Shown: positions 3,306 through 21,125 of the stretch, in pieces
Position numbering within the stretch: position 1 is the stretch's first letter
Layout of the letters: every line of letters begins with the position of its first letter
Source: Burkholderiales bacterium
GTDB lineage: Bacteria; Pseudomonadota; Gammaproteobacteria; Burkholderiales; Burkholderiaceae_E
Length of the DNA: 64,000 nucleotides
Direction of reading: 5' to 3'
Assembly: GCA_005798775.1 (NCBI GenBank)
Contig: SYIM01000036.1
Location: 16,378-80,377, forward strand
Made by a program: the position numbers and the translations under genes
The notes under the pieces: generated by a model
Database searches by the model: none
What the model saw: only the letters and a program-made list of their open reading frames with translations
Told to the model about the DNA's origin: nothing

Positions 3306-3310
3306 CGGAT

Positions 3311-5279: not shown

Positions 5280-5295
5280 TTCCGCGAGGCTGTGG

Positions 5296-6810
5296 ATGGA
5301 CGCCTTGCTGCGCGCGTTCACGATGGTGGGACAACCCGAGGTGCTGCTCACCATCGTCGCGTCGTCGATCTTCGGTCTGGTGGTGGGCTTCATCCCAGGT
5401 CTCACAGCCACGATGGCCACTGCGCTGCTCGTTCCCTTTGCCATGTTCCTCGACCCGGTCTCGGCGATCGCGTCCATCGTGGCGGCCACTGCCATGGCGA
5501 TCTTCGCAGGCGACATTCCAGGTACGCTGCTGCGGCTGCCAGGTACGCCCGCCTCGGCCGCTTACGTAGACCAGTCTTATCGGCTCGCGATGGCTGGACG
5601 CGCCGGTGAGATCCTGGGCATCAATGTGGTGTTTTCCGCGTTGGGCGGCATCTTCGGCACGATCGTGCTGGTGACCGCCGCACCGCTTCTTGCCGACTAC
5701 GCACTACGGCTGTCTTCATTGGAGTTTTTCTGGCTTGCCATCCTGGGCTTGTCCTGCGCGGTGTTCGTGGTGGGCGACAACGTGGCGAAGGGCCTCGCCG
5801 CCCTCGCTTTTGGACTGCTGCTCGCCACAGTAGGGCGCGACTACACCTCAGGCTTTCCCAGGTTCACGTTCGACGAAGCCGATCTGCTCGACGGCATTCC
5901 ATTCGTTCCCGCATTGATCGGCTTTTTCGCGCTGCCGGAAATCCTTCGGACCATGCTGGGCGGCGCAGCGGTGCGAGGCCAGCCCATCACGCAGGCTGGC
6001 AGTATCTTTTCCGGCATGCTGCGCGCGGTCTGGCACTGGCGCTGGAATTTCATCCGGTCAAGCGCACTCGGCACTGCGGTCGGCGCGCTGCCAGGGGCGG
6101 GCGCCGACACCGCGGCCTGGACCGCCTACGCGGTGTCGAAGAAGCTCACGCGTGATCCCCAAGCCTGGGAGCGGGACAGCGTGGAGGGTATTGTGGATTC
6201 CACCAGCGCCAATAACGCTGCGCTGTCCGGCGCCTGGATTCCAGCGTTGGTCTTTGCGATACCGGGCGACACCATCACCGCCATCGCCATCGCTGTGCTC
6301 TACCTCAAAAACGTCACGCCCGGGCCCTCGATTTTTCTAGAAAACGCGCACGTGCTCTACGCGGTGTTCACCACGTTCTTTATCGCCAACCTGCTCATGA
6401 TTCCGCTCGGCTGGCTCGCGATCCGGGTGGCGATTCCCATTCTCAGAGTGCCGCGCCAGGTGCTGATGGCGCCCCTCCTGCTCTTTGCCTGCGTGGGGGC
6501 TTACGCGGTCGACAATAATGTGTTTGGCATCGGCGTGATGCTGGTCTGCGGTCTGGTGGGCTACTGGATGGAGCACCACGGTTACCCGGTGGGCCCGGTG
6601 GTGCTGGGCATGGTGATGGGACGTCTGGTCGAAGAACATCTGATGACCTCGCTCATCAAGGTGCAGGGTGATCTCACGCGGTTTTTCGAGCGGCCGATAG
6701 CCACCGCGCTCGCGGTGTTCACGCTGACTGTCTGGCTGCTACCGCTTGCGCGGTGGGTGGCTAGGCGAATGCGGCGTTCATCCGCCTCGGGTTCCGCCGG
6801 CTCGGGTTGA
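5296..6810 (+). CDS. tctA: Tripartite tricarboxylate transporter large permease TctA
   Basis: 504-aa polytopic membrane protein; GFIPGLTATMATALLVPF and GALPGAGADTAAWTAY are typical TctA motifs. Confidence 0.9.
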   Translation: MDALLRAFTMVGQPEVLLTIVASSIFGLVVGFIPGLTATMATALLVPFAMFLDPVSAIASIVAATAMAIFAGDIPGTLLRLPGTPASAAYVDQSYRLAMAGRAGEILGINVVFSALGGIFGTIVLVTAAPLLADYALRLSSLEFFWLAILGLSCAVFVVGDNVAKGLAALAFGLLLATVGRDYTSGFPRFTFDEADLLDGIPFVPALIGFFALPEILRTMLGGAAVRGQPITQAGSIFSGMLRAVWHWRWNFIRSSALGTAVGALPGAGADTAAWTAYAVSKKLTRDPQAWERDSVEGIVDSTSANNAALSGAWIPALVFAIPGDTITAIAIAVLYLKNVTPGPSIFLENAHVLYAVFTTFFIANLLMIPLGWLAIRVAIPILRVPRQVLMAPLLLFACVGAYAVDNNVFGIGVMLVCGLVGYWMEHHGYPVGPVVLGMVMGRLVEEHLMTSLIKVQGDLTRFFERPIATALAVFTLTVWLLPLARWVARRMRRSSASGSAGSG

Positions 6811-6871
6811 AGGAGCAGCACCGTTGGACACTCATTCCGACGCGGCCCTTGCCGCAACGCAGGTCCCTGAG

Positions 6872-7777
6872 ATGGAAAACGTCGCGGTCATCGATGCCCA
6901 CCATCACCTCTGGGACCTGGATGCCAATGAACACCCCTGGCTGCGCGACGAGCCGCCCCCGGCCTTTCGCTATGGTGACAGCCGACCCCTGCGACGCAAC
7001 TATCTGCCTGCGCACTACCGCGCGGATGCAGCGGGATTCAATATCGTAGCGACGGTCTATATGGAGGCCGAACACGACCCGGCTGACCCACTTCGTGAAA
7101 CCCGCTGGGTGCATCAGATCGCCAAACGTGACGGCCTGCCGCAGGCCATGGCAGCGGCCGCGTTTTTCGACCGCGACGACGCACGCGACATCATCTTCGC
7201 TCAGGCGGTCTTACCTCTGGTTCGGAGCATCCGTCACAAGCCGAGCGGGGTGGCGCACCCGCAGGACTGCACCGCCGGGCACCAGATCGCAGGATCGATG
7301 CGCTGTCCGCGCTGGCGCCTGGGCTATCGTCATCTGGTTGAAAGCGGCCTTCACTTCGAACTGCAGACCCCCTGGTGGCATCTGGATGACGCCTGCGAAC
7401 TCGCCGCCGAATTTCCGGGCACGCTCATCATCCTCAATCACCTGGGGCTGCCCGCCGACCGAAGCCAGGCGGCGTTACAGGCCTGGCATGCGGCCATGTC
7501 GCGACTCGCCCAGGCACCGAATATCCGGGTCAAGCTCTCGGGCATCTGCGTGCCGGGGGCACGATGGACGCCAGAACTCAATGGCTGGATCGTGCGCGAA
7601 GCCATCCGCCTGTTCGGCGCGAGGCGTTGCATGTGGGCGAGCAATTTCCCCGTTGACGGATTGGTGGCGAGCTACGCCGACATCCTGAGTGCGATGTTTG
7701 TGATCACCCGTGACCTCGCGCCTACCGATCGTGCTCGAATCTTCAGCGGCACAGCGGCCGAGGTGTACCGGCTGTAG
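6872..7777 (+). CDS. Amidohydrolase_2 family metal-dependent hydrolase (sugar-lactonase/decarboxylase type)
   Basis: The N-terminus VIDAHHHLWD is the hallmark of this family. In-frame ATG at 6872; the longer ORF from 6746 overlaps tctA and was not used. Confidence 0.8.
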   Translation: MENVAVIDAHHHLWDLDANEHPWLRDEPPPAFRYGDSRPLRRNYLPAHYRADAAGFNIVATVYMEAEHDPADPLRETRWVHQIAKRDGLPQAMAAAAFFDRDDARDIIFAQAVLPLVRSIRHKPSGVAHPQDCTAGHQIAGSMRCPRWRLGYRHLVESGLHFELQTPWWHLDDACELAAEFPGTLIILNHLGLPADRSQAALQAWHAAMSRLAQAPNIRVKLSGICVPGARWTPELNGWIVREAIRLFGARRCMWASNFPVDGLVASYADILSAMFVITRDLAPTDRARIFSGTAAEVYRL

Positions 7778-7805
7778 CGACGCGCGGGCGAACAGCCCGC
7801 GCCGA

Positions 7806-8849
7806 TCAGATTACCTTGGCAGCCCGCACAGCAATCGCTGAGCCGCGCTCCACCAGCATGCACCACAGGGACAGTGCGCGATCGCCCAGCGTGGCTGGTT
7901 GCGACGCCAGGTCAGTCAGGCCCGGGGCCCTGTGATCGTCGAGCGCGCGCGTTGCATCGTCGCGATGCCGGCATTCGTCATTCCGAAAGGACACCAGGAG
8001 CGCCAGCAGCTCGCGTAGCCGGTCGTCCTGTGAACCGGGGTTCGCGGGCTCGCACCAGCCGGTGCTGCAGTTGTTCAGCGCTGGCTGGAGGGCTGCTGTG
8101 TCACCCCTGAGCGAATCGATCGGCCACTGCAGGTCTTCGATCTGCTCGAGGTAATGACGGTCAACAAACCGCTCGACTGCCGCGATCGTCGCAAGTGTCC
8201 AACGACGGCCTCCCAGCGCGGCGACCATCCCAGTGACCGCGCCTGCAATCCGCCAGAGCACCAGCAGCCGACTGCGATGGCGCCACGGCAGCAGCGTGTT
8301 GAAAGCGTCCAGATGCTGGCGTTCCTGCGCAGCGTGCTCCTCAAGGAGAGGGCGCAGGCCGGGATCGCGTTGCAGGGCAAGCATCATCCGGTAGATCCAC
8401 ACCGCGCCGGTTTCGCCTGCATGGTCTGAACGGAGCGCCGGAATCATCTGCGCCGGAAGCCACTGCTCACGGACAAGATGACGGACAAGCTCTTGCATGC
8501 GTGGCCGCACCCGAAGGAACAACCCGTACACAGCGTCCATCACCCGCAGGCCGCCGGGCAGTCTGCCGATCAGTGCCAAAGCGCGCCATGACCGCCCGAG
8601 TCGTGCCCAAAGCAGCGCGAAAGCTGGCGCCCCGTGTAGCCAGCGCCCTTCGCTGCTGAATACATGAAAACGCTGCATGAGCGCCGCGGGGTCGGGCTGA
8701 TAGCCTGCCTGATCGCTCGGAATGGTCAGACCCGGCTGCGACAGGTTGTTCCAGAGAATGTCGGCGGGGGACTGTCTGCGATAGACCGCCACCTCACGAA
8801 CGCACATTGGACAGGACCCGTCGAAAAACACACTTAGTGTAGGACGCAT
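7806..8849 (-). CDS. Fusion protein: DCC-type thiol-disulfide oxidoreductase (DUF393) domain + Coq7-like di-iron hydroxylase domain
   Basis: N-terminal FFDGSCPMCVREV (DUF393 CxxC). The C-terminal half carries the Coq7 ligand motifs DHAGE, EERQH-type ExxH, AAVERF and DECRH. Start taken at ATG 8849; a TTG at 8936 is possible. Confidence 0.7.
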   Translation of the reverse strand: MRPTLSVFFDGSCPMCVREVAVYRRQSPADILWNNLSQPGLTIPSDQAGYQPDPAALMQRFHVFSSEGRWLHGAPAFALLWARLGRSWRALALIGRLPGGLRVMDAVYGLFLRVRPRMQELVRHLVREQWLPAQMIPALRSDHAGETGAVWIYRMMLALQRDPGLRPLLEEHAAQERQHLDAFNTLLPWRHRSRLLVLWRIAGAVTGMVAALGGRRWTLATIAAVERFVDRHYLEQIEDLQWPIDSLRGDTAALQPALNNCSTGWCEPANPGSQDDRLRELLALLVSFRNDECRHRDDATRALDDHRAPGLTDLASQPATLGDRALSLWCMLVERGSAIAVRAAKVI

Positions 8850-8965
8850 AAGGTCAAGGATAGCGCGGACTGTACGCAGCGATCTCGGCAAACATCCTCT
8901 GCAAGGAGGGTCAATCGGCGGGCCCCGACGCAGCAATCGTTTCCAGACCCGCAGCGCTTGGCGGC

Positions 8966-9709
8966 CTAGTAGCCGCCGCCCGCATCAATAATCGACCCTG
9001 TAACGTAGGACGCTGACTCTGACAGCAGCCAGATGACGGCCTCCGCCACTTCGTCGGGACGCCCCATTCGCCGCATCGGGATGACCTGCTTCATTCGCTC
9101 CATGAGTTCAGGCGGATTCGCTGCATGGATGTCAGTATTGATGACTCCCGGACGAACCGCATTGACCCGAACCCCATCAGCCGCCACTTCCTTGGCCAGT
9201 CCGATGGTCATCGTATCCAACGCCGCCTTGGAGGCCGCGTAATGCACCCAAAAATTCGGCGAACCGCTGCGGGCAGCAGCGGACGACACATTAACAATGC
9301 TGCCACCAGCCCCCCCGCGCGACTGCGCCATCCGGCGAACCGCCTCGCGCGCGCACAGAAACGCACCGAGGGTGTTCAGATTGAACACAGCATTTAGCTG
9401 CTCCGCACTCACGTTCATGACCGTGCTTTGCCCGCCCGTCATCCCCGCATTGTTGACCAATCCCACCAGTTGCCCTTCGCGATCCGCTGCCTCGAAGCAT
9501 CGAAGGATGTCGTGCTCGCGACCGACGTCAGCGCACACTGCAACAGCATGACCGCCGTCGCGCCTGATCTCGCTTACCAGCGCTTCGGCATCACGGTGCC
9601 TGCTCTGATAGACCACCACGGGAACGCGTCCATCACGCGCAACGCCCCGGGCGATTGCTGCGCCGATGCCGCGGCCACCACCGGTAATGAGGACGACCTG
9701 GCCTGACAT
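8966..9709 (-). CDS. Short-chain dehydrogenase/reductase (SDR)
   Basis: ITGGGRGIGAAIA cofactor motif, NNAG, and YAASKAAL catalytic YxxxK. Confidence 0.9.
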   Translation of the reverse strand: MSGQVVLITGGGRGIGAAIARGVARDGRVPVVVYQSRHRDAEALVSEIRRDGGHAVAVCADVGREHDILRCFEAADREGQLVGLVNNAGMTGGQSTVMNVSAEQLNAVFNLNTLGAFLCAREAVRRMAQSRGGAGGSIVNVSSAAARSGSPNFWVHYAASKAALDTMTIGLAKEVAADGVRVNAVRPGVINTDIHAANPPELMERMKQVIPMRRMGRPDEVAEAVIWLLSESASYVTGSIIDAGGGY

Positions 9710-9745
9710 CAGCGCTCCTTAGCCCCCCGGCAAGGCAAGAGTCGG

Positions 9746-11737
9746 TCAGATGATTGTGCGGATGGCATCCTCGATCACCTTTTGCGAAGGAATGACCGCA
9801 AGCTCGAGATCAGGGTTGAACGGCATTGGCACGTCGGGCGCACCGATCCGGACCACAGGCGCATCAAGCCAGTCAAAGGCTTTCTCCATCACCATGGCTG
9901 CAACCTCCGCCCCAAAGCCACCAGTCTTGACCGCCTCGTGTACCACCACCAGACGACCGGTCTTGCGAACCGAGGCCAGGATCGTTTCTTCGTCAAGCGG
10001 TCGGATCGTTCGGGGATCAATCACTTCGACGCTGATGCCTTCGCGCTCGAGTGCGCTGGCGGCTGCCAGGGCACGCGCCACCATGGCAAGTGTTGCAACG
10101 ACCGTGATATCGGTACCTTCTCGCTTGATACTTGCCTTGCCGATCGGAATTGCATAGGGCTCGACAGGAACGGGCCCGACTGGCCCATGGTAGAGCAACT
10201 TGTGCTCAAGAAAGATGACCGGATTGTCGTCTCGAATCGCAGCCGTAAGGAGCCCCTTTGCGTCATAAGGCGTTGACGGTGCAAGCACCACCAGACCAGG
10301 AATATGAGCAAACCAAGCCTCGAGGCTCTGACTGTGCTGAGCAGCTAAACGGATCCCGCCGCCCTGCGGCCCCCGGATCACCACGGGCACACTGGGTTTA
10401 CCGCCCAGCATGAATCTGAACTTTGCCGCCTGATTGACGATCATGTCCATCATCTGGGTGACAAAATCAAAGATCTGAACCTCAATGACTGGGCGCATCC
10501 CGGCAATCGCAGCACCAACCCCGGCGCCGCTGAAGGTGGCCTCGGAGATGGGTGTATCCCGAACCCGAGCCTCACCGAATTTCTCCGAGAGCCCTTTTGA
10601 CACCTGGAACAATCCGCCGGTCTCGGCGACGTCTTCACCCATGACAAATACCGAGTCGTCTCGCGCCATCTCCTGATGCAGCGCTTCGTTGAGCGCCTCG
10701 CTGACAGTCAGTGTTCGCGAGCCTGTGGGCCCAGGCTCATGATGGGCAAGGTGTGGCCCAAGCACTGCAGCGAACATCTGGCTCAGGGTGGGCTCATCGC
10801 CCGCAAGGCCAAATGCCACCGCGTCGGCAATCTCCTGCTCGGCTGCCCGCCGAATGGCTGCACGCTGGGTCGCGAACTCCGTGTTCTCGTGCGCCCAGCG
10901 CTCGAAACGATGAATGGGATCACGGGCCAACCATTCGTCCATCGCAGCTTGGGACCGCGGGTCCGGCAGGTTGACGCGCAGGCTGTGTTGGGTGTGCCGC
11001 CATGTCATTGCCTCAATGAGTGATGGCCCTTGACCCGCCCGTGCGCGTGCGACCGCTTCGCCTGCCGCTTCATGCACGGCTAGCACATCGTTACCGTCTA
11101 TCGTCAAGCCCGGAATGTTGTAAGCCGCCGCCCGCGCAGAAATTCGCTCAACTGATGAGGTCTTCAAAATCGAGGTGTTGAGTGCCCACTGGTTGTTCTC
11201 GCAAACGAAAATCATGGGCAGCTTCCAGACCGCCGCCAGATTAAGCGCCTCGTGAAAGACCCCCTGATTCGATGCGCCATCGCCGAAAAACGCTACCGTG
11301 ACCTGATCAGTTTTGCGAATCTGGGAGGCGAGTGAGGCGCCCGCCCCAAGCGGCATGGTTGCGCCGACGATGCCGTTGGCGCCCAGAATATTGAGCGCCA
11401 TGTCAGCCACGTGCATGGAACCGCCCAGGCCACCGCAGTAGCCACTCGCCTTGCCCATCAGCTCAGCGAGCATCCGGTCCATCCGGGCGCCCTTGGCAAT
11501 ACAGTGTCCGTGACCCCGGTGATAACTTCCAATGTAGTCGTCGGGCCGCAGATGAAAGCATACGCCCGCCGCGATGGCTTCTTCGCCTGCATAGCTGTGC
11601 GCTGTGCCCTTGACAACGCCTGCCTGGAACAGCTCGAGCACCTTCTCCTCAAACAACCGGATCCGAACCATCACCGAGTAAAGCCGAGCGAGCGTCTCGG
11701 CAGGCAGGAGAGTCGCCCGGCTGCTCGACATGTTCAT
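9746..11737 (-). CDS. ThDP-dependent 2-oxoacid/acetoin dehydrogenase E1 component, alpha and beta subunits fused
   Basis: 663 aa. The N-terminal half has E1-alpha motifs (YHRGHGHCIAKG, GGSMH, FFGDGASNQG, ENNQWA). The C-terminal half has E1-beta motifs (VFVMGEDV, RVRDTPISEA, IEVQIFDF). Confidence 0.9.
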   Translation of the reverse strand: MNMSSSRATLLPAETLARLYSVMVRIRLFEEKVLELFQAGVVKGTAHSYAGEEAIAAGVCFHLRPDDYIGSYHRGHGHCIAKGARMDRMLAELMGKASGYCGGLGGSMHVADMALNILGANGIVGATMPLGAGASLASQIRKTDQVTVAFFGDGASNQGVFHEALNLAAVWKLPMIFVCENNQWALNTSILKTSSVERISARAAAYNIPGLTIDGNDVLAVHEAAGEAVARARAGQGPSLIEAMTWRHTQHSLRVNLPDPRSQAAMDEWLARDPIHRFERWAHENTEFATQRAAIRRAAEQEIADAVAFGLAGDEPTLSQMFAAVLGPHLAHHEPGPTGSRTLTVSEALNEALHQEMARDDSVFVMGEDVAETGGLFQVSKGLSEKFGEARVRDTPISEATFSGAGVGAAIAGMRPVIEVQIFDFVTQMMDMIVNQAAKFRFMLGGKPSVPVVIRGPQGGGIRLAAQHSQSLEAWFAHIPGLVVLAPSTPYDAKGLLTAAIRDDNPVIFLEHKLLYHGPVGPVPVEPYAIPIGKASIKREGTDITVVATLAMVARALAAASALEREGISVEVIDPRTIRPLDEETILASVRKTGRLVVVHEAVKTGGFGAEVAAMVMEKAFDWLDAPVVRIGAPDVPMPFNPDLELAVIPSQKVIEDAIRTII

Positions 11738-12330
11738 GTCATTTTCGCGTGTTGGCCCGAGATCCCGGCGGTAAACTGGAAGCCAACCCTCTTGACATGC
11801 TCAAGCGCAGCAGAACCGAATTTCGACTCGATATCTTGCCCAACGCTAGGCGCATAGATGAGGTCGTTCATGTCATGCGTGCCACCCGAGATCAGCACCA
11901 GGAGGTATGCGGTTTCGTCGCCGACGTTCTCGAAACGACGGCTGACCGCTGCCGGTACCGCAAATGTATCGAACGGCTCGAGTATGGTTTCGTATTCGCC
12001 CTTATCGCCCCATTGCAGCTTCCATTTACCACTCAGCGCCATGAAGGTTTCGATCGTCTTGGCGTGCATGTGCAGCGGCACGCCACCTCCAGGTGGGAGT
12101 TCAGCGATGATATTGACGTAATCTGGGACCTTGACCCGCGCCTCACCCCACGGCCCGTTATCAAACTCGGGCGCGGTGATTGCAAAAGCCGGTGCGGCCA
12201 ACATCTTGTAGACACCCTCGGGGATTGGGCCTTCCTTACGCTTTTCCCCGGCTCCCATGTATTTCAGTTTCTTGAATCGGACGATGCACTTCTCTTCAAT
12301 TTCTTCGGGCGTGTAATGCTTGCTTTCCAT
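11734..12330 (-). CDS. Cupin domain protein, function unknown
   Basis: 198 aa from the in-frame ATG at 12330 (GAGGAG RBS). GGGVPLHMHAKTIETFMALSGKW is a cupin metal motif. Its stop overlaps the E1 start (ATGA). Confidence 0.6.
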   Translation of the reverse strand: MESKHYTPEEIEEKCIVRFKKLKYMGAGEKRKEGPIPEGVYKMLAAPAFAITAPEFDNGPWGEARVKVPDYVNIIAELPPGGGVPLHMHAKTIETFMALSGKWKLQWGDKGEYETILEPFDTFAVPAAVSRRFENVGDETAYLLVLISGGTHDMNDLIYAPSVGQDIESKFGSAALEHVKRVGFQFTAGISGQHAKMT

Positions 12331-12361
12331 GACAGTCTCCTCGTTTATCTGGGGGTGATGG

Positions 12362-13249
12362 CTACTGCGGCTTTGAAGTTCGGGTGGCCGACTCGAGCAT
12401 TTCAAAAACGGCCGCAACTTCGTCGTCTTGTTTACCCTGGGACATCATTTTTCCAAACCACTCCAGTTGTGCCTTCAGCACTGGGGCGGCGAGCCCCATC
12501 CTGTCGCTCTCATCTCGAATGAACTGCAGGTCTTTCCACAAAACATGAGCGGGACCGGGCGCGGGCTTGAACTTGCGCTGCGCGATCATGGGCGCGCGGA
12601 AATCGAATACCCGCGACTGCGCGGCGCTTGGGCCGATCACCTTGATCATCAAGTCAGGGTCAAGGCCTGCCGCAACGCCAAACACGAAGGCCTCGGCAAC
12701 CACCAGACTGTTTGCGCCCACGATAAAGTTGGTGACCAGTTTGATCGCCATTCCGCTGCCGAATTCTCCGACATAGTAGTTCTTCGGGGAAAAGGCATTG
12801 ATCACCTCTGCCCAGCGGTCTGCAACATTCTTGTCGCCGCTTACGAACAGCACGCAGGCTTTATTCGCAACCATTGAGGGCGTGCCACTGATCGGGCTGT
12901 CGAGCATGACCGCCCCCGCTGGCTTGAGCGCATTGGCGAGTTCGGTCTTGAGCGTCGAAGCAAACGTACCCATTTCTATCACCGTGAGGCCTGGATGCGC
13001 GCCAGTCACGATGCCATCTACACCCATGAACCCTTCCACCATCGACGCTTCGGTTGGCAGACAGGTAATGAGCAGCTCACTCCTGCGGGCGAGTTCGGCC
13101 GCCGTCTCCACCAACTGTCCCCCGACCCCGACAAAGTCTTCCGTGCTTGGACGTCGCACCGCAAGCACTGGAAACCCTTCTTTAAGAAGGTTTTCGCCCG
13201 CCGCGCGGCCGATTTTCCCGAGCCCCAGAATGCCGATGGTTGGCTTCAT
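12362..13249 (-). CDS. NAD(P)-dependent beta-hydroxyacid dehydrogenase (3-hydroxyisobutyrate/tartronate-semialdehyde reductase family)
   Basis: IGILGLGKIGRAAG dinucleotide fold, DSPISGT, and GSGMAIKLVTN catalytic Lys region. Start at the in-frame ATG 13249. Confidence 0.85.
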   Translation of the reverse strand: MKPTIGILGLGKIGRAAGENLLKEGFPVLAVRRPSTEDFVGVGGQLVETAAELARRSELLITCLPTEASMVEGFMGVDGIVTGAHPGLTVIEMGTFASTLKTELANALKPAGAVMLDSPISGTPSMVANKACVLFVSGDKNVADRWAEVINAFSPKNYYVGEFGSGMAIKLVTNFIVGANSLVVAEAFVFGVAAGLDPDLMIKVIGPSAAQSRVFDFRAPMIAQRKFKPAPGPAHVLWKDLQFIRDESDRMGLAAPVLKAQLEWFGKMMSQGKQDDEVAAVFEMLESATRTSKPQ

Positions 13250-13435
13250 GCTGTCCCCTAGTTTCCCGTGCACCGCCGACACGACCATATCTCGATTGGT
13301 GACTAGATTGTTTTGCTTGGTTGATATTCGAAACTTGAGCCGTGCAACCAGCATGTTGTGTAATCGACTAATCGTATAACATGGCTTTGACCAGGGTATG
13401 AGTCGTCAATTCCAAAATATAAGGGGAAGATTCAA

Positions 13436-14611
13436 GTGAACAAGAACGGTGTCAATCCTCAGCGCCTGCGGGCCCTGATGTGCGTCTCGGCGCTTGCCGC
13501 AGCGGTCGTCACGACCTTTGCAACACCTGGCACTGCACAGGCTCAGCAGGCCACTGGCGAGCCAATCAAAATCGGCGCAATTCTCGCCATCACTGGCCCT
13601 GGCGCTGGGCTTGGCGGTCCGACCCGAAACGGCATCCTGCTCGCGGAAAAAGCGGTCAATGCCTCGGGAGGTGTCCGGGGTCGGCCCATTAGGGTGATCA
13701 TCGAAGACGACGCGAGCAATCCCGATAACGCACGCACCAAGGCCAATGCGCTGGTGCACAACGAAAAAGTGGTCGGCCTCCTCGGGCCCTCACAGATTGC
13801 CCAGGCGCTTTCCACGGGTGCCATCACCGATCCACTGAAACTTCCGCAGATCGTTCCCGCGGGGCTGTCGGTCCCGGTCGAGCGGGAGCGTAAGTGTATC
13901 TATCACGTACTCCCCTCCCAGGAATTGAATGCCCGCGCGCTCATGGAATACGCGGTCACTGCGCTCAAGGCGAAACGGGTCGGCGTGCTGCATGACTCAG
14001 GCTACGGCAACGCCGTGATGGGCGCCCTTAAGACAATCTCATCGTCCTACCCTGGCGTCGAGTTCGTAACGATTGAAAAATTCGAGATCGGAGCCACCGA
14101 TGTCACCACCCAGGCTGCCAAGGTCCGGGCAGCGAATCCCGATGCGGTGATGGTCATCGCCACCTCGGGTGTTCCGTTCCGCGCAGTCAAGCAGGTGCGG
14201 CTCGAGGCGCCGGTCATCGCCGCCATCGGCTCGTCGTCATACTCCTACGTGAAGGCTATGGGCGAGGGTGCTGACAACGTGGTCATCCCTGAATTTCTGG
14301 TGGGCGAAGACCCTCTGCCGCATCAAAAGGCGTTCGTTGACATGTATCGCCAGGAGTACAAGGAAACACCCAAGAACTTCGAGGCAGCTGGTTGGGACAT
14401 GGTGCAATTCATGGTCGCCGCCCTGCGTGCGGTCGGCCCAGAGGCAAAGCCGGCTGAAGTCTGCGAGTGGCTGCGCCGCCCTCACGCGGGCATTCTTGCC
14501 GACTATGATTTCCGCGAGTCCGACCTGACCGGCATGAAGCTTCCGAGCTACATCTACTCGAAGCTGGTCAAGGGCGAGTACACCCGCCTGCCGTTCCGCG
14601 TAGCGAAGTGA
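13436..14611 (+). CDS. LIV-type (family 4) ABC transporter periplasmic substrate-binding protein
   Basis: Signal peptide ending TAQAQ, then IKIGAILAITGPGAGLG, typical of Leu/Ile/Val-binding-protein-fold receptors. Confidence 0.85.
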   Translation: MNKNGVNPQRLRALMCVSALAAAVVTTFATPGTAQAQQATGEPIKIGAILAITGPGAGLGGPTRNGILLAEKAVNASGGVRGRPIRVIIEDDASNPDNARTKANALVHNEKVVGLLGPSQIAQALSTGAITDPLKLPQIVPAGLSVPVERERKCIYHVLPSQELNARALMEYAVTALKAKRVGVLHDSGYGNAVMGALKTISSSYPGVEFVTIEKFEIGATDVTTQAAKVRAANPDAVMVIATSGVPFRAVKQVRLEAPVIAAIGSSSYSYVKAMGEGADNVVIPEFLVGEDPLPHQKAFVDMYRQEYKETPKNFEAAGWDMVQFMVAALRAVGPEAKPAEVCEWLRRPHAGILADYDFRESDLTGMKLPSYIYSKLVKGEYTRLPFRVAK

Positions 14612-14618
14612 TGACTGT

Positions 14619-14635
14619 CCAGGGTCTTCCCCTGG
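14619..14635 (+). other. Short intercistronic hairpin CCAGGG-tcttc-CCCTGG between binding-protein and permease genes
   Basis: Perfect 6-bp stem read directly, 8 nt after the binding-protein stop. Could attenuate read-through or stabilise the binding-protein transcript. Weak. Confidence 0.2.
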
Positions 14636-14659
14636 GGCCAGGACGAGATTGAGCTCACC

Positions 14660-15547
14660 ATGACGCTCAGTCTCGTCGCACAGGCCGTTCTGTCCGGGGT
14701 CACCAACGGCGTGATCTATGCCCTGATCGGCATGGGACTAGCCGTCATCTTCAAGGGTAGCCGCGCCATCAATGCGGCCCAGGGAGAGTTCTCGCTGATC
14801 GGTGCAGTAGCAAGCGTATTTGCCATGAAAGCAGCAGGTTTCTCATACCCCGCGGCATTTGCTGTGGGCGCACTGGCTGGCGCTGCAGCGGGTGTCCTGA
14901 TCGACCTTATTCTGGTCCGGCCCATGATCCGACGTCAAGCACAGGAGGACGCATTCCTGTTGCTCACCATCGGGATCGCGTTCGCCATCTCGGCAGGCGT
15001 TCTGTTCTTCGCCGGACGCGATTACTTCACGCTGCCCTCGATCGGGTCCGACGGCGTGGCGATCCTGTTTGACGCCACCATTCGCTACCACGCGATCTGG
15101 GTCATCGGGATCACTGCGTTAATCGTGATCGCGCTGCGCGCCTTCTATCGAAAAACCACTATCGGACTTTCGATGATGGCGGCGTCGATCGATGCTGATG
15201 GCGCATCCACCACGGGCATCAACGTCGACCTCATGCGCACGGCTACCTACGGCATGGGTGGCCTACTTGGCGCACTGGCGGGGCTCCTGGTTGCACCTCT
15301 CGTACCCATCAGTTTTTATATGGGGCTGGTGTTCACCCTCAAGGGCTTCTGTGCCGCCATGATTGGGGGGCTCACCAACCCGATGGGTGCGATCGTAGGC
15401 GGGCTCATGCTGGGCCTGCTTGAATCGCTTGCGATTGTTTTTATCGCCTCGGCATACAAGGATGTGGTCGCTCTCACCGTACTGATCGTCATCATGATTC
15501 TTGTGCCACATGGCATCCTCGGTCGCGTCGGTCGGGCGGGCGGTTAA
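14660..15547 (+). CDS. Branched-chain-amino-acid-type ABC transporter permease (LivH-like)
   Basis: 295-aa polytopic protein; GVTNGVIYALIGMGLAVIF and INAAQGEF motifs. Confidence 0.9.
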   Translation: MTLSLVAQAVLSGVTNGVIYALIGMGLAVIFKGSRAINAAQGEFSLIGAVASVFAMKAAGFSYPAAFAVGALAGAAAGVLIDLILVRPMIRRQAQEDAFLLLTIGIAFAISAGVLFFAGRDYFTLPSIGSDGVAILFDATIRYHAIWVIGITALIVIALRAFYRKTTIGLSMMAASIDADGASTTGINVDLMRTATYGMGGLLGALAGLLVAPLVPISFYMGLVFTLKGFCAAMIGGLTNPMGAIVGGLMLGLLESLAIVFIASAYKDVVALTVLIVIMILVPHGILGRVGRAGG

Positions 15548-15551
15548 GACC

Positions 15552-16514
15552 ATGCGGCGCGTGCTGTTTGCTGCGAGTGCAATCCTGATCTGGGCAGTGC
15601 TGCCGCTGATCCTGCCAAGGCATTTCACCGATCTGCTGGTATTTGCCGCTATTTATTCGATCGCCGGCCTTGGCGTGGGGCTGCTTCTGGGACACTGCGG
15701 TATCGTGACGCTCGCCCAGTCAGCGTTTTATGCAATCGGCGCCTACGCGTCGGCGATTGTCACGGTGACTTTAAAGTTACCCATGGTCGTTGGCGTAGCG
15801 GCAGGACTCATCACCAGCGCTCTCATCGCTCTCGCGATAGGCTGGCCTGTTCTCAGGCTTCGGGGCTATTTCCTCGCGGTCGCCACGCTGGCTCTCGCCA
15901 TGATTGCGAGCGCGCTGTTTTTCGAATGGGATTGGCTCACAGGCGGAACCATCGGTCTGGGCGGACTCCCCAAACTTGGCGTACTCGGTGTGGCGCTCGA
16001 TACACCGCAGTCGTTCTACTACGCGGCCTGGGTCGTCGCGGCGCTTGCCATGGTACTCGTGCACAACCTGGTGAGCGGGCGTACTGGTCTGGCCATGCGA
16101 AGCATGCGTGACGCCATTGATGCAGCCCGCGTGCTCGCTATTGACATTCACAGTCTGCGTGTACAGATGTTCGTGCTTTGCGCGATGCTGGGCAGTCTGT
16201 CCGGCAGCCTTTTCGCCCACTACACGGGCTACGTCAGCGTGGCAAGTTTTTCGATCGACAAGGCGATCCTGTTTCTGCTGATTCCTGTCATCGGCGGTGC
16301 GGGTTCCATCGCAGGGATCATTGTCGGCGCACTTTTCATCACATTTGTTCCCGAAGTGCTATCCAAGATCGGAGACTTTCACGGCATTGTCTTCGGCCTT
16401 GCACTGGTGATTGTCGTGATTGCAGCGCCTCACGGAATCGTCGGTAGTATCGAACGCTGGTGGCACGACCAGCGCACGGGTCTTTCTTCGAGCGCAGCAG
16501 AGGGCCGGCAATGA
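15552..16514 (+). CDS. Branched-chain-amino-acid-type ABC transporter permease (LivM-like)
   Basis: Polytopic; GHCGIVTLAQSAFYAIGAY motif. In-frame ATG at 15552, just after the LivH-like stop. Confidence 0.85.
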   Translation: MRRVLFAASAILIWAVLPLILPRHFTDLLVFAAIYSIAGLGVGLLLGHCGIVTLAQSAFYAIGAYASAIVTVTLKLPMVVGVAAGLITSALIALAIGWPVLRLRGYFLAVATLALAMIASALFFEWDWLTGGTIGLGGLPKLGVLGVALDTPQSFYYAAWVVAALAMVLVHNLVSGRTGLAMRSMRDAIDAARVLAIDIHSLRVQMFVLCAMLGSLSGSLFAHYTGYVSVASFSIDKAILFLLIPVIGGAGSIAGIIVGALFITFVPEVLSKIGDFHGIVFGLALVIVVIAAPHGIVGSIERWWHDQRTGLSSSAAEGRQ

Positions 16515-17263
16515 CCTCGCTTGACGTACGTGAAGTCGGCCACAGCTTCGGCGGCTTGAATGTTCTGACCAATGTCAGCTTTGAGGTCCCAGCTGGGAAA
16601 ATCGTAGGGCTGATTGGTCCCAATGGATCCGGGAAAAGCACGCTCTTCAACATCATCAATGGATTTTTGGTACCCCGGACAGGGCGGGTCTCGCTTGACG
16701 GGACCGATCTTGGCGCCATGAGCGTTGAGGCACGAAGCCGGGCCGGTCTGGTCCGAACCTTTCAGACACCCAAGGTGTTTGAGCACATGAGCGTGATCGA
16801 AAACCTGATGGCAGGTGCTTACAAGCTCACCCGGTCTGGGGTGGTCTCAGACATGCTTCGCCTGCCAGGCGCGCGGCGAGACGCCGCCTCGATGCGCGAA
16901 CAGGCGCACGAACTTTGCAAACGATTCGGTCTTGAGCGTCTTCATGATACTGCTGCCGGACTGCTCACAAGCGGGCAGCGACGAATGCTTGAACTCGCTC
17001 GAACCTATGCCGGCAAGCCCCGGCTTCTTCTGCTTGACGAGCCCTCGTCGGGTCTGGCCGCCGAAGAGGTTTCGCAACTCGGCGAGTGGCTCAAGAAATT
17101 GAATAACGAAGGCATGACGCTCTTGCTCGTCTCGCATGACATGCAACTCATGAATGTGGCGAGCATAGTGCATGTGCTTTATTTCGGCGAGATTATTGCC
17201 ACCGGTGCAATGGACGACATCCAGCGAAATCCGAAGGTGCGCGAGGTGTACCTTGGCGCGTAA
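16511..17263 (+). CDS. ABC transporter ATP-binding protein (LivG-like)
   Basis: Walker A GPNGSGKST, signature SGQRRMLELAR, Walker B LLLLDEP. ATGA overlap with the permease gene. Confidence 0.9.
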   Translation: MTSLDVREVGHSFGGLNVLTNVSFEVPAGKIVGLIGPNGSGKSTLFNIINGFLVPRTGRVSLDGTDLGAMSVEARSRAGLVRTFQTPKVFEHMSVIENLMAGAYKLTRSGVVSDMLRLPGARRDAASMREQAHELCKRFGLERLHDTAAGLLTSGQRRMLELARTYAGKPRLLLLDEPSSGLAAEEVSQLGEWLKKLNNEGMTLLLVSHDMQLMNVASIVHVLYFGEIIATGAMDDIQRNPKVREVYLGA

Positions 17264-17286
17264 TACGTACTCACCACGGGGCGGCC

Positions 17287-18000
17287 ATGCTTGAGACACA
17301 TCAACTGGCAAGCGGCTACGGCAAGATGACGATCCTGCGCGAAGTCGGGATCCGAGTCGGTGACGGCGAGGTCGTAGCGATCGTCGGCGCCAACGGCGCC
17401 GGGAAAACCACTCTGGTGCGAACAATCTGCGGCCTGATCGCCCCAAGCGCCGGAAAGATCGTCAAGAACGGTGTCGACCTCACCCAACTTCCTACCCACA
17501 AGCGAATGCGGCACGGCATAGCAGTCGTACTTGAGAACCGGCGCCTCTGGGGCGAATTGACAGTGCGGGAGAACCTGCGACTCGCCGAAGTGAATGCTCG
17601 ATCCGCCTCGTCCTCCCGGATCACCTTTGAAGACACGGCCAAATTGTTTCCCGTCATCGCGGAGCGCCACGCCAGTCCGGTTGAACTGTTGAGCGGCGGC
17701 GAGCAGCAGATGGTTGCCATTGCCCGGGCACTCCTGATGCAACCCGATCTGCTGATCATGGACGAACCGTCAACGGGTCTTGCGCCAAAGATCGTGAAGG
17801 ACATCCTCCGGGTTTTAGGCGGTTTACGTGAACGCGGAATCAGCCTTCTGCTGGTCGAGCAGAACGTTGCCCTGGTATCCGAAATCGCCGATCGGGGTTA
17901 CGTGATGTCTGTCGGCCGAATCGTTCATACCGTCGGTCCGGGCGAATGGGCTGGCTTCCTGGCCGACGAGAAACTCGTCAAGGCCTATCTCGGCGGATAG
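17287..18000 (+). CDS. ABC transporter ATP-binding protein (LivF-like)
   Basis: Walker A GANGAGKTT, signature SGGEQQMVAIAR, Walker B LLIMDEP. Confidence 0.9.
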   Translation: MLETHQLASGYGKMTILREVGIRVGDGEVVAIVGANGAGKTTLVRTICGLIAPSAGKIVKNGVDLTQLPTHKRMRHGIAVVLENRRLWGELTVRENLRLAEVNARSASSSRITFEDTAKLFPVIAERHASPVELLSGGEQQMVAIARALLMQPDLLIMDEPSTGLAPKIVKDILRVLGGLRERGISLLLVEQNVALVSEIADRGYVMSVGRIVHTVGPGEWAGFLADEKLVKAYLGG

Positions 18001-18056
18001 GCACCGCCCCGAGGCCCCAGTGCCACGCCTGCGTCTCACCTGTCATAGGACCATCC

Positions 18057-19322
18057 ATGCCCACACCCGTGATCCTGCCTAGCCTGGGGCCGTCGATCGA
18101 GGAAGCAACACTGGTGAAGTGGCTCGTTCCTGTCGGGGCTTTCGTGCAGCGCGGTGAGCCGCTGTTAAGCGTTGAAACCGATAAGACGCTTACCGACATT
18201 GAAAGTACGGATGAAGGGTATCTGATCGAAATCAAGGTTGAGGAAGGCAGCACGATCCGGCTCGATCAGGAGCTCGCGGTACTGGACGATCGGCCCGCCG
18301 GCGGCGCTGCGGCCCGGGTGAGCGCACTGCCACCCGTCACTGTCGCACCGCCAGAGCCGGCTGCGGCCATCTTTACCAGCCCTGTGACAATACCGCGGCA
18401 GACAGTCGCTGCGGCAGCGAGCGAACCGGCCGAACTTGCTGCAGAATCAGCCCCGACCGGTCAGTCACACGCCTCGCCGCGTGCAAGGCGACTGGCGCGC
18501 GAATCTGGCGTACCCATCAACCAGGTTCAAGGCAGCGGTCCGGGCGGGCGAGTCATCGAGAGAGACATCACGGCATTTGTCGCGCAGGCGGTCGCTGGGG
18601 CATCGAGCGCCAGCATGCGGCCTCCCATGTTAAAACGATCTGAGCAGTCCCGTGACCTCCCCCTTTCCGCAATTCGTCGGTCGATTGCACGCCGGATGAC
18701 GGAGTCCGCGCAGGGCGTACCCGTATTCTTCACAACCGCCAAGGTCCTGACTGACCCGCTCACCGAATTCCGTTCGCAGCTTGCTCGCGCGCGTTCTGTT
18801 CAGGTCAGTGTCAATGATGTTGTGGTTCGCGCGTGCGCGCTCGCGCTCCAGCAACATCGCGAGATCAACGCGAGCTTCGCGGGCGATGCCATTCGTATCT
18901 TTGAGGACATCGATATTTCTATCGCGGTCGCAATTGATGATGGTCTGATCACCCCTGTTCTGCGCAATGCCGACCAGAAAGGGCTGATCGCCGCCGCCAC
19001 AGAAATTAGGTCACTCGCCGAAAAGGCCCAACGCGGGCAATTGTTGATGAATGAATACCAGGGTGGTACCTTCACAGTGTCGAACCTGGGTATGCTGGGA
19101 GTTGAGTCATTTACCGCCATCCTCAACCCTCCCCAGGCGGCCATCCTTGCGGTGGGCGGAATCAGCCGGGAAGTCTGGCTTGACGCCGGCGTACCCCGCG
19201 AACGAGGGGTCATGCGGCTGACCCTCACCTCAGATCACCGGGCGATCGACGGCGCACAGGCCGCCCGCTTCCTTGCAACGCTCAAAGCCCTGCTCGAGAA
19301 TCCCCTCAGCCTGGTTGTCTGA
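18057..19322 (+). CDS. Dihydrolipoamide acyltransferase (E2) of a 2-oxoacid/acetoin dehydrogenase-type complex
   Basis: Lipoyl domain with VETDKT, an Ala/Pro linker, the E3-binding segment SPRARRLARESGVPINQVQGSGPGGRV, and a catalytic domain with SDHRAIDG. Confidence 0.9.
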   Translation: MPTPVILPSLGPSIEEATLVKWLVPVGAFVQRGEPLLSVETDKTLTDIESTDEGYLIEIKVEEGSTIRLDQELAVLDDRPAGGAAARVSALPPVTVAPPEPAAAIFTSPVTIPRQTVAAAASEPAELAAESAPTGQSHASPRARRLARESGVPINQVQGSGPGGRVIERDITAFVAQAVAGASSASMRPPMLKRSEQSRDLPLSAIRRSIARRMTESAQGVPVFFTTAKVLTDPLTEFRSQLARARSVQVSVNDVVVRACALALQQHREINASFAGDAIRIFEDIDISIAVAIDDGLITPVLRNADQKGLIAAATEIRSLAEKAQRGQLLMNEYQGGTFTVSNLGMLGVESFTAILNPPQAAILAVGGISREVWLDAGVPRERGVMRLTLTSDHRAIDGAQAARFLATLKALLENPLSLVV

Positions 19323-19410
19323 CTCTTGATCATTTCAAAAACGCCATCTCCCTGATGGTCACCAAAAGTTCGTCCACTACGCTCACCCTGAATGCTGAAG
19401 GAGATAACGG

Positions 19411-20607
19411 ATGCGTGATTGCCGGTCTTTCGCTGATGTGGCCTACGATGAGGCAATCGGCCGCGCTACCGCAATGATTCCAGTGCTTCGCGAGCGCGCT
19501 GGAGAGGCTGAGCGCGGACGGATCGTCCCACCGGAAACCATGGACGAGCTTCACCGTACCGGCCTGCTCCGGGCCCTGCAGCCCAAGCGATGGGGCGGAA
19601 TGGAGCTCGATATCGTTGCCACTTTCGATATCGGTCACGAACTCGCCCGTGGCTGTGCATCGACCGCATGGACAGCCGTCAACCTGCTGATTCATCACTG
19701 GATGCTCGCCCTGTACGAAGAGGGCGGCCAGGAATGGATCTGGGGACAGGACCCTGACGCGTGCATAGCGTCGGGGGTCGCGGCTGCTCAAGGTCAGGGC
19801 CGCGTGGCGGACGGAGGGTTTGTCATCAGCGGCCGTTGGAATTTTTCAAGCGGAGTAAATGTCTCGGACTGGAACATGCTCGCGGCTACCATCCGGGACG
19901 ATAACAACAACGTGATCGACCACCGTCTGTGCTTGCTTCACAAGTCTGAGTATGAGGTGGTTGATGACTGGCGTGTCCTCGGTATGCGTTCAACCGGGAG
20001 CATGACCGTTATCGCCAAAGACGTGTTCATTCCCACTTACCGTGCGTCATGCATGTACAACACCCGCGGCGGCGATCACCCTGGCGCACGCGCCAATCCC
20101 GCCGCAGTGTACCGAGTGGCACTGCCGATGATGGCTGGTCATATCGTGGGGTCTGTGCTGGTTGGCAATGCCCAGGCCGCACTCGAGCAAAGCATCGCAT
20201 TCATCAAGGAGCGAAGCGGGAGCTATACCGGTGCGAAACTGCGTGACGTTCAGCCGATCCAGATCAAGGTTGCTGCAGCCGCCGCCCGCATCGATGCCGC
20301 ACGGCGGATTATTCGCGGCGAATTCATGGAGACACAGGAGCTCGCCAATCGCCATCAAGTACCCGACCTGGAGACCAAGCTGCGGTGTAAGCGCGATGTC
20401 GCCTATGCCGTAAATCTTTGCACCGAAGCGGTCGATATGCTTCATGCGTTGGCGGGTGCGAACGGTATTTACGATGCTTATCCCATTCAAAGAATTTTCC
20501 GTGATGCTCACTCCGGTTCAAGCCATTTTCTCCTGGGCAGCGACCTCCAGTTCACCAATTGGGGGTTGAGCGCGCTTGGCGGAGAGGTTGCCAATCCATT
20601 GCTTTAA
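19411..20607 (+). CDS. Acyl-CoA-dehydrogenase-fold flavin-dependent monooxygenase, oxygenase component (HsaA / HpaH-C2 / DszC-like)
   Basis: The N-terminus LRERAGEAERGRIVPPETMDELHRTGLLRALQPKRWGG and CASTAWTAVNLLIHHW match the two-component aromatic hydroxylase branch of the ACAD fold. GAAGGAGA RBS. Confidence 0.7.
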   Translation: MRDCRSFADVAYDEAIGRATAMIPVLRERAGEAERGRIVPPETMDELHRTGLLRALQPKRWGGMELDIVATFDIGHELARGCASTAWTAVNLLIHHWMLALYEEGGQEWIWGQDPDACIASGVAAAQGQGRVADGGFVISGRWNFSSGVNVSDWNMLAATIRDDNNNVIDHRLCLLHKSEYEVVDDWRVLGMRSTGSMTVIAKDVFIPTYRASCMYNTRGGDHPGARANPAAVYRVALPMMAGHIVGSVLVGNAQAALEQSIAFIKERSGSYTGAKLRDVQPIQIKVAAAAARIDAARRIIRGEFMETQELANRHQVPDLETKLRCKRDVAYAVNLCTEAVDMLHALAGANGIYDAYPIQRIFRDAHSGSSHFLLGSDLQFTNWGLSALGGEVANPLL

Positions 20608-20693
20608 GTCAGCTGGCGCTGGTGCAAGCCAATACGTTAGTCCGGCGCCAATTCTCGCGTGATCGCGTTATCCACCCAGAAGGAGACCTTCCC

Positions 20694-21125
20694 ATGGCTA
20701 TCAAGGTGCTTGAAATTCATCATCACGCCATTCGAATCGACGGCGTCCCCGAACAGGCGGTACTCGATTTCTACACGAATGTGCTGGGCATGGAAGCTGA
20801 CAAAGGCCGCCCAACCATTCCAGGCATCCCAGGTTTCTGGATCAACGTAGGCGACGTAGGACAATTGCATCTGATCGGCGGCAGCGTTCCTTCTCCGATC
20901 GCGCGCAGCCCCGACCAGGACCCCGCCGCGCCGCATGTGGCTCTCGGCGTCGAAAGCGTCCCCGAAACCAAGGCCGAGCTCGAGCGTCTGGGGATTCCCT
21001 ACTGGACCACCCGTGCAGCCAACCCCGAGCTCGAGCAGTTGTTTGTCAATGATCCCCGCGGGAACATGATCGAACTCCATCAAGCGGGGAGCTGTCGCTG
21101 CACGCTCGCCAATCGCAGTCGCTGA
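20694..21125 (+). CDS. VOC (glyoxalase/bleomycin resistance/extradiol dioxygenase) superfamily protein, single module
   Basis: 143 aa. Shows IHHHAIRI...FYTNVLGM and a C-terminal NMIELHQ pattern. GAAGGAGA RBS before ATG 20694. Confidence 0.7.
   Translation: MAIKVLEIHHHAIRIDGVPEQAVLDFYTNVLGMEADKGRPTIPGIPGFWINVGDVGQLHLIGGSVPSPIARSPDQDPAAPHVALGVESVPETKAELERLGIPYWTTRAANPELEQLFVNDPRGNMIELHQAGSCRCTLANRSR

Follow-up and report, generated by a model that had tools for sequence, protein, structure and literature searches.

A conserved nine-gene cassette of uncultured Burkholderiales with a fused E1, an E2 acyltransferase and a dedicated ABC importer on divergent operons

Few substrates are known for lipoyl-dependent E1/E2 complexes, namely pyruvate, 2-oxoglutarate, branched-chain oxo-acids and acetoin. 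A 64,000-nucleotide stretch of the genome of a Burkholderiales bacterium (assembly GCA_005798775.1, contig SYIM01000036.1, positions 16,378 to 80,377; hereafter the window) carries the E1 and E2 genes of such a complex on opposite strands, with an entire ATP-binding cassette (ABC) importer placed ahead of the E2 gene. The arrangement raises the question of whether these genes form one functional unit or a chance juxtaposition, and of what such a unit might do. We report that they belong to a conserved cassette of nine genes, a real and uncharacterised catabolic module that differs from the described E1/E2 systems; a literature search for a described cluster of this kind returned nothing relevant.

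Conservation and gene content of the cassette

The window's proteins were mapped onto the loci recovered with a cupin pattern and onto a metagenome contig, which revealed a conserved unit in which a dehydrogenase, a cupin and a fused E1 are encoded one way and a binding protein, two permeases, two ATPases and the E2 the other way. This nine-gene layout recurred in seven further loci (L009 and L011-L016), all from uncultured freshwater or soil Burkholderiales, with identities of 72-98% for all genes except E2. The flanking genes varied by locus and included a TRAP transporter, an acetolactate-synthase-like enzyme, a second cupin and an O-antigen ligase; since only the flanks differ in this way, the nine genes move together. 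A first-pass annotation, made from the letters of the window and a list of its open reading frames (ORFs), had drawn attention to the splitting of E1 and E2 over a divergent promoter region with the importer ahead of E2, and had proposed a comparison of synteny across genomes; the layout is kept in all seven further loci and is not accidental. The genes of the locus, called from the ORF listing together with Pfam and NCBIfam profile searches, are as follows.

8966..9709, minus strand: short-chain dehydrogenase/reductase (SDR) oxidoreductase, 247 aa (adh_short_C2, 1.5e-54), 36 bp downstream of E1
9746..11737, minus strand: fused E1 alpha-beta, 663 aa (E1_dh, 5e-77; Transket_pyr, 4e-44; Transketolase_C, 3e-43)
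11734..12330, minus strand: cupin, 198 aa (Cupin_2, 1.6e-12), start set by homologue
12362..13249, minus strand: beta-hydroxyacid dehydrogenase of the 3-hydroxyisobutyrate dehydrogenase (HIBADH) type, 295 aa (NAD_binding_2 and NAD_binding_11), first gene of the leftward operon
13250..13435, no strand: divergent intergenic spacer, 186 bp, read from the sequence
13436..14611, plus strand: LIV/HAAT-type periplasmic binding protein, 391 aa (Peripla_BP_6, 4.9e-51)
14660..15547, plus strand: ABC permease 1 (BPD_transp_2, 3e-28)
15501..16514 (ORF coordinates), plus strand: ABC permease 2 (BPD_transp_2, 4e-31), true start probably the ATG at 15549
16511..17263, plus strand: ABC ATPase 1, LivG-like (ABC_tran and BCA_ABC_TP_C), its ATG overlapping the permease stop
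17287..18000, plus strand: ABC ATPase 2, LivF-like (ABC_tran, 1e-32)
18057..19322, plus strand: E2 dihydrolipoyl acyltransferase, 421 aa (Biotin_lipoyl, E3_binding, 2-oxoacid_dh), end of the conserved rightward operon
19411..20607, plus strand: HsaA/HpaH-like flavin-dependent oxygenase component with the ACAD fold (Acyl-CoA_dh_2), outside the conserved cassette
20694..21125, plus strand: VOC (glyoxalase-fold) protein, a single module of 143 aa (Glyoxalase, 2.6e-6), outside the conserved cassette

All twelve gene identities named in the first-pass annotation were borne out by Pfam and NCBIfam, and neither an E3 (dihydrolipoamide dehydrogenase) nor a regulator gene was detected with these profiles in or beside the block, as it had stated. 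The true start of E2 was placed at 18057, and that of ABC ATPase 1 was inferred from its ORF translation and a 252-aa homologue in L009. A longer, TTG-started ORF covering the cupin is an artefact, in that homologues start at the methionine that gives 198 aa, and the E1 gene begins 4 nt before the cupin gene ends. The length of the spacer was confirmed as 186 bp, since alignment with relatives fixes both flanking start codons. The gene order of the two operons as first described was upheld; their extent was not, because the HsaA-like and VOC genes are not conserved with the cassette, and the conserved unit is accordingly smaller.

Distribution of the cassette

Two further contigs carry incomplete versions of the cassette. 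An Acetobacteraceae contig (L018) encodes the binding protein and then, divergently, the dehydrogenase, cupin and E1, and stops on the importer/E2 side. A contig of a separate branch (L050) retains the dehydrogenase-cupin-E1 side, its sequence likewise ending on the importer/E2 side.

The cupin is the most specific marker of the cassette, with 19 word-sharing relatives in 5.8 billion protein clusters. Among 185,579 species genomes, a search with a cupin pattern returned nine, each a metagenome-assembled genome (MAG). Within the window's family, the cupin was present in two of the four other genomes of the same genus and, apart from distant paralogues, in none of 25 other sampled genera. No close relative of the E2 was found in 400 sampled genomes of the order, the best match being 43% identical. 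The GC content is 58-61% over the block and 62-66% in both flanks, and two studies of freshwater metagenomes, one of them possibly its source, have sequencing runs that contain the window's DNA. Taken together, the patchy distribution, the lower GC content and the occurrence in freshwater metagenomes describe an accessory module, probably mobile and acquired horizontally.

Phylogeny of the fused E1

Pfam domain searches, which the first-pass annotation had put forward as a check on E1 and E2, detected E1_dh, Transket_pyr, Biotin_lipoyl, E3_binding and 2-oxoacid_dh. The E1 is thus of the alpha/beta type, with an alpha part that binds thiamine diphosphate and a transketolase-like beta part, and its GDG...ENN thiamine motif was invariant in the alignment. 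In the NCBIfam searches the beta part passed the subfamily cut-off for pyruvate dehydrogenase (PDH) E1 beta (410 vs 321 bits), the alpha part fell below its PDH cut-off, and no model for branched-chain 2-oxoacid dehydrogenase (BKD) was among the hits.

A phylogeny of E1 was inferred with annotated Aco-type pairs (Klebsiella, Acinetobacter and Clostridioides), PDH-annotated pairs and one BKD pair as references. All fused E1s formed one clade with 100% support, inside which the cassette E1s grouped together as a subclade, joined only by the E1 of the cassette contig L050. The fused clade meets the Aco-type sequences at an unresolved node and stands apart from the Firmicute PDH and the BKD references, the latter being the most distant group in the tree, with an E1 identity to BKD-type pairs of about 37%. 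The cassette E1 was placed outside the Klebsiella/Acinetobacter Aco clade.

Fusion of the two E1 parts is not rare in itself: thousands of proteins share the fused architecture at about 70% identity, although no characterised representative was found in the literature searched. Their contexts vary, and include an orphan beside an amidase gene, a sugar-acid dehydratase-E1-SDR cluster, a LacI-regulated singleton and a LysR-E1-E2-SDR-VOC cluster on a plasmid of Fuscovulum. In a Steroidobacteraceae MAG (L051, 6829-10798), a fused E1 with 69% identity is encoded between an MR_MLE (enolase-superfamily) dehydratase and an SDR, and adjoins alpha-galactosidase and aldose epimerase genes. This context hints that some fused E1s may act on sugar-acid-derived 2-oxo acids.

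The E2 acyltransferase, its predicted docking on E1 and the missing E3

The lipoyl lysine of E2 (K43), its binding domain, the catalytic serine (S342) and the DHRxIDG motif (D393-H394) were invariant in the eight cassette E2s. In the E2 phylogeny these proteins formed one clade with 99% support, outside the Klebsiella/Acinetobacter Aco clade, with the Fuscovulum plasmid E2, itself the partner of another fused E1, as its sister. The AcoC model matched the lipoyl part only (68 bits, against a cut-off of 307), and the score of the E2 was below the PDH equivalog cut-off of NCBIfam. Placement of E1 and E2 against Aco, Bkd and Pdh sequences had been suggested at the outset, with the proviso that a position inside a well-characterised clade with a similar typical neighbourhood would refute the observation; because both proteins fall outside the Aco, PDH and BKD groups used, this is not the case.

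The divergence between the two subgroups of the cassette is about fourfold greater in E2 than in E1 (path lengths of 1.0 and 0.26), the window's E2 being 45-51% identical to those of L009 and L014-L016 and its E1 83%. Replacement of the window's E2 by a foreign gene, which such identities might indicate, was rejected because all cassette E2s form a single clade.

Structure modelling docked the E2 binding domain on the E1-beta dimer with an ipSAE of 0.61, compared with 0.00 for the best control, and so passed a mark reached by 58 of 80 solved complexes and by two of 110 mismatched pairs. The docking runs shared at least 79% of contacts, with a partner pLDDT of at least 77, and the modelled interface sets an arginine-rich E2 helix (residues 140-145) on E1 residues 621-626 in the C-terminal region of the beta part. 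Since solved complexes of E1 with a binding domain exist, the result is one of likeness rather than proof, and the pass may reflect similarity to those complexes.

The lack of a linked E3 had been presented as unusual. A search of the genome for lpd, as had been proposed, returned a bona fide gene (530 bits, above the cut-off) on contig C223, directly after a sucB-type E2, along with two weaker paralogues on other contigs. That sucB-type E2 is the only other E2 of the genome, and it was placed in the order's housekeeping sucB-type clade; as the genome is 78.5% complete, more E3 genes may exist. The acoXABC clusters of Pseudomonas putida and Alcaligenes eutrophus likewise encode only E1 alpha, E1 beta and E2 (PMC10107126). 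Given the lpd elsewhere in the genome and this precedent for clusters without an E3, its absence here is no puzzle, and the earlier reading is corrected: accessory complexes of this kind ordinarily have no E3 gene beside them.

Comparison with acetoin, pyruvate and plasmid-borne systems

Acetoin dehydrogenase (acoXABC; acoABCD/acoABCL of Klebsiella, Acinetobacter and Clostridioides) resembles the cassette in combining a thiamine-dependent alpha/beta-type E1 with a lipoyl E2 to form acyl-CoA. The locus could then be a genuine acetoin/2,3-butanediol system (AcoAB-AcoC), with the SDR as butanediol dehydrogenase and the importer, dehydrogenase and cupin as unrelated neighbours. Besides the fused E1s, the E1s most similar to that of the cassette among plasmid matches were split pairs with 42-54% identity, and those inspected sit in acetoin-type clusters; Aco clusters may moreover lack E3 and carry a short-chain dehydrogenase, and a dehydrogenase follows them (PMC10107126), just as an SDR follows E1 in the window. 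The cassette E1, however, is one fused chain in its own fully supported clade, and both it and the E2, which also has its own clade, lie outside the Aco group. The two genes are on opposite strands, no AcoX or AcoR-type regulator is encoded, no sigma-54 promoter is found in the spacer, and the SDR, at 157 bits, falls short of the 270 bits that the butanediol dehydrogenase model requires. The importer, dehydrogenase and cupin are integral parts of the cassette, strictly co-conserved with E1 and E2 in the seven further loci. We consider an acetoin system very improbable.

The PDH complexes (mitochondrial, alphaproteobacterial and Gram-positive PdhAB-PdhC-Lpd) provided the best profile and structure matches of E1 alpha, E1 beta and E2, and share with the cassette the lipoyl-binding-catalytic plan of E2 and the predicted docking of its binding domain on the C-terminal region of E1 beta. 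They differ in that the E1 alpha part and the E2 of the cassette score under the PDH equivalog cut-offs, the tree sets its E1 apart from the Firmicute PDH reference, and the cassette is accessory and patchy rather than housekeeping, with no linked lpd.

The Fuscovulum blasticum plasmid pRsa (L026, 219-5898) encodes, in order, a LysR regulator, a fused E1 alpha-beta, an E2, an SDR and a VOC protein. Its E1 belongs to the same fused family, at 60% identity and with 100% clade support, its E2 is sister to the cassette E2s, and SDR and VOC genes accompany the two in both cases. On the plasmid, by contrast, E1 and E2 are adjacent on one strand with a LysR regulator, and there is no importer, HIBADH-type dehydrogenase or cupin. 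In BLAST the Fuscovulum E2 aligned with that of the window over the lipoyl domain only. A homologous E1-E2-SDR-VOC unit shared by the two loci was considered and rejected, as the SDRs are 34% identical and the VOC proteins show no detectable similarity. No experimental characterisation of the Fuscovulum cluster was found in the literature.

To judge from its proteins, the cassette would work like a complex of the acetoin/pyruvate-dehydrogenase type, yet by the tests applied it belongs to none of the Aco, PDH and BKD groups. What sets it apart is the fused E1, the location of the E2 gene after those of a dedicated importer on the other strand, and an obligatory dehydrogenase-cupin pair.

Importer, dehydrogenase and SDR

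The importer is of the full HAAT/LIV type, with a Peripla_BP_6 binding protein, two BPD_transp_2 permeases and two ATPases. The binding protein scored 73 bits with the LivJ/K model (PRK15404), for which the cut-off is 477, and so does not qualify as LivJ/K. Its solved relatives, all distant, include binders of amino acids or 2-oxo acids as well as binders of aromatic acids.

These transporter domains bear on the possibility that the locus pairs an importer of branched-chain amino acids with a branched-chain 2-oxoacid dehydrogenase or with a second pyruvate dehydrogenase. Homologues are named '2-oxoisovalerate dehydrogenase E1' in JGI, the E1 beta part exceeds the PDH-beta subfamily cut-off, and a gene of the L-lactate dehydrogenase type occurs in a variant of the cassette that lacks E1 and E2 (see below). 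Nonetheless, a long distance separates the E1 from the BKD reference, neither the E1 alpha part nor the E2 reaches the PDH equivalog cut-offs, and the binding protein is remote from LivJ/K. The cluster contains no aminotransferase or amino-acid dehydrogenase, and the dehydrogenase and cupin would be left without a role; such a system is improbable.

The best matches of the dehydrogenase were tartronate semialdehyde reductases (PDB 1vpd, 4e-43; GarR, 164 vs 397 bits). It has the HIBADH fold, and its scores for all the named equivalogs (GarR, HIBADH, LtnD and YihU) were far below cut-off. The SDR was below every NCBIfam equivalog cut-off. It follows E1 in the window's near relatives and is absent from L009 and L014-L016; an orthologue with 63% identity, also of 247 aa, lies directly after E1 in the independent branch L050, where it is followed by a sugar-type transporter of the major facilitator superfamily (MFS). 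The SDR is probably a recurrent accessory member of the cassette.

The cupin

Alignments showed that H87, H89, E94 and R131 are invariant over the wider family of this cupin, and that R132, N135, H152, D153 and a GGTHDM motif are also invariant within the clade of cassette cupins. The cupin fold is supported by Pfam and by the structure model, and the first cupin motif keeps its His-x-His and Glu. The canonical metal site of three histidines and one glutamate is not present, as the invariant R131 occupies the position that we take, on our reading of the alignments against the cupin motif, to be that of the second-motif histidine. H152 may substitute for the missing metal ligand. The invariance of R131, R132, N135 and the GGTHDM motif, together with the retained histidines and glutamate of the first motif, suggests a carboxylate-binding metal enzyme.

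The structure model of the cupin improved from a pLDDT of 65 with 14 sequences to 88.9 with 44. Attempts to derive a function from it were unsuccessful, as Foldseek and VIA-align retrieved generic single-domain cupins only, tied near a Z of 12, and look-alikes in the ESM Atlas were confined to unnamed cupin clusters. Distant relatives were equally uninformative owing to their heterogeneous contexts.

A second cupin paralogue, 30% identical, is encoded in a Lake Baikal MAG (L014, 12936-13511) on the opposite strand just after E1. The window's subgroup is characterised by a single cupin, an SDR after E1 and HsaA-like and VOC neighbours, and loci of the L014 type by a second cupin. Alphaproteobacterial homologues of the cupin with 61-63% identity (L019, 853-4620; L046, 1004-4771) lie in a different, likewise conserved setting, in which sulfatase, PEBP-family and cupin genes are convergent with a gene for a protein with a citrate-synthase C-terminal domain.

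A Comamonadaceae variant without E1 and E2

A form of the locus with the dehydrogenase, cupin and importer and without E1 and E2 was found in 19 Comamonadaceae contigs (for example L017, 1118-12318; L047 and L048, both 2373-15265). Its gene order is Ldh_2, IclR, DUF4440, a BVMO-like (Baeyer-Villiger-type) monooxygenase, an FAA-hydrolase-fold protein, an L-lactate-dehydrogenase-type flavin mononucleotide (FMN) enzyme, an acyl-CoA dehydrogenase, an acyl-CoA ligase, the HIBADH-type dehydrogenase, the cupin and the LIV-type ABC importer, with all genes except DUF4440 on one strand. The FMN enzyme scores above its NCBIfam subfamily cut-off. Enzymes of the FMN 2-hydroxy-acid dehydrogenase type, a CoA ligase and an acyl-CoA dehydrogenase here stand in for E1 and E2, which would fit an acyl-CoA end product in both forms of the locus.

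The variant is also an indication that the divergent operons could be functionally independent, with the dehydrogenase, cupin and importer forming one pathway and E1/E2 constituting a module of its own that forms acyl-CoA and is tied to that pathway by linkage alone; the occurrence of fused E1s at about 70% identity in quite different contexts, orphans included, points the same way. In the cassette, however, E1 shares an operon with the dehydrogenase and cupin, overlapping the latter by 4 nt, and E2 belongs to the importer operon. Each half of the E1/E2 complex thereby sits in one of the divergent operons, transcriptionally tied to one half of the other module, in the window and in all seven full-length relatives. 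If the two operons did not serve a single process, this would be difficult to account for. We regard independent operons as unlikely.

Genes adjoining the conserved unit

The flavin-dependent oxygenase scored 314 bits with the HsaA model (cut-off 450). Together with the VOC protein it had been the basis of the initial idea that an aromatic-substituted oxo-acid is degraded, an idea that can be extended to an imported aromatic or phenolic oxo-acid whose ring would be hydroxylated by the HsaA-like enzyme and cleaved by the VOC protein. Both genes lie downstream of E2 and share its strand, beyond a gap of 88 bp, a flavin monooxygenase is encoded near the variant without E1 and E2, and the aromatic acids bound by some solved relatives of the binding protein would also suit this idea. 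The two genes, however, accompany the cassette only in the same-genus relatives L012 and L013; unrelated genes follow E2 in L009 and L016, and no match was found in L014-L015. The VOC protein is, in addition, a single module of 143 aa, and the window encodes no reductase partner for the oxygenase, two flavin reductases being encoded elsewhere in the genome. The HsaA-like and VOC genes are tied to the cassette by adjacency only, and an aromatic pathway has little chance of being correct. The wider proposal in the first-pass annotation of a hydroxy-ketone or oxo-acid substrate is plausible.

At the other end of the locus, a DCC/DUF393-Coq7 fusion gene (7806-8936) lies directly downstream of the SDR gene. 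It is kept in the near relatives L011 and L013, at 83-85% identity, and is absent from the other cassette loci.

The intergenic spacer

Proteobacterial aco clusters have an AcoR-type activator and a sigma-54 promoter; no sigma-54 -24/-12 consensus was found within 13250-13435, the scan for it remaining at chance level, nor was there a match to the sigma-70 consensus. Matches from promoter and terminator scans were no more numerous than those in shuffled controls, and the spacer had none of them. Only the nearest relatives share conserved blocks with the window's spacer, around 13310-13335 and 13370-13385. The spacers of the second subgroup (L014, L015 and L016) contain a perfect 12-bp palindrome, TGCTATATAGCA, at alignment columns ~95-112, which does not occur in the window's subgroup and could be an operator. 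Both operons may be co-regulated from the spacer that they share.

Proposed function

The reading that we favour, and hold to be reasonably probable, is that of an accessory catabolic cassette that turns an imported carboxylate into acyl-CoA by means of the dehydrogenase, the cupin, E1/E2 and a shared Lpd. The gene content, its conservation, the intact catalytic motifs, the separate lineages of E1 and E2 and the presence of lpd elsewhere in the genome were observed directly; the order of the steps, the role of the cupin and the class of substrate we infer. The LIV-type ABC system would import a small carboxylate, for which a hydroxy acid or a sugar-acid-like or amino-acid-like compound would fit. 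The beta-hydroxyacid-type dehydrogenase would oxidise the imported acid, joined in some lineages by the SDR, and the cupin would convert the product to a 2-oxo acid or alpha-ketol, perhaps as an isomerase or decarboxylase. The fused thiamine-dependent E1 would then cleave this compound and load the acyl group on the lipoyl arm of E2, from which it would be handed to CoA, and the lipoyl group would be re-oxidised by the shared dihydrolipoamide dehydrogenase, whose gene lies elsewhere, next to that of the sucB-type E2.

Several observations weigh against this pathway. The cupin matches generic folds only, and among solved proteins the binding protein has none but distant relatives (E of ~1e-20 to 1e-23). 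The divergence of E2 far exceeds that of the neighbouring genes (45-51% vs 72-88% identity), and the E3 genes listed for this incomplete genome may not be all that it has. From the Comamonadaceae variant it is seen that the dehydrogenase, cupin and importer can function without E1 and E2; the two halves are therefore separable modules that need not act on one pathway.

As regards the substrate, a sugar-acid-like or hydroxy-acid compound is our best guess, and at most a tentative one, prompted by the reductase-like dehydrogenase, the MFS sugar-type transporter in L050 and the fused E1s encoded in sugar-acid clusters. A bolder and rather doubtful proposal is that the cassette performs an undescribed lipoyl-dependent C-C cleavage of a carboxylated ketol or 2-oxo-hydroxy acid. 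One example would be a route from a 2,3-dihydroxy acid via a 2-hydroxy-3-oxo acid to acyl-CoA and glyoxylate or an aldehyde-acid. The rare, arginine-containing cupin would then represent a new family of isomerases or decarboxylases, and ketones derived from sugar acids, not pyruvate, acetoin or branched-chain oxo-acids, would be the substrates of the fused E1 family as a whole.

Significance

The fused-E1 family has thousands of members, and the cassette is a compact handle on it, combining a dedicated importer that has a screenable binding protein with two dehydrogenases and a rare cupin. The Fuscovulum plasmid, carried by a cultured alphaproteobacterium, could serve as a tractable model for the same family. 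Identification of the ligand of the binding protein would name a carbon source of freshwater Burkholderiales, and would show what the cupin and one branch of the fused E1s do.

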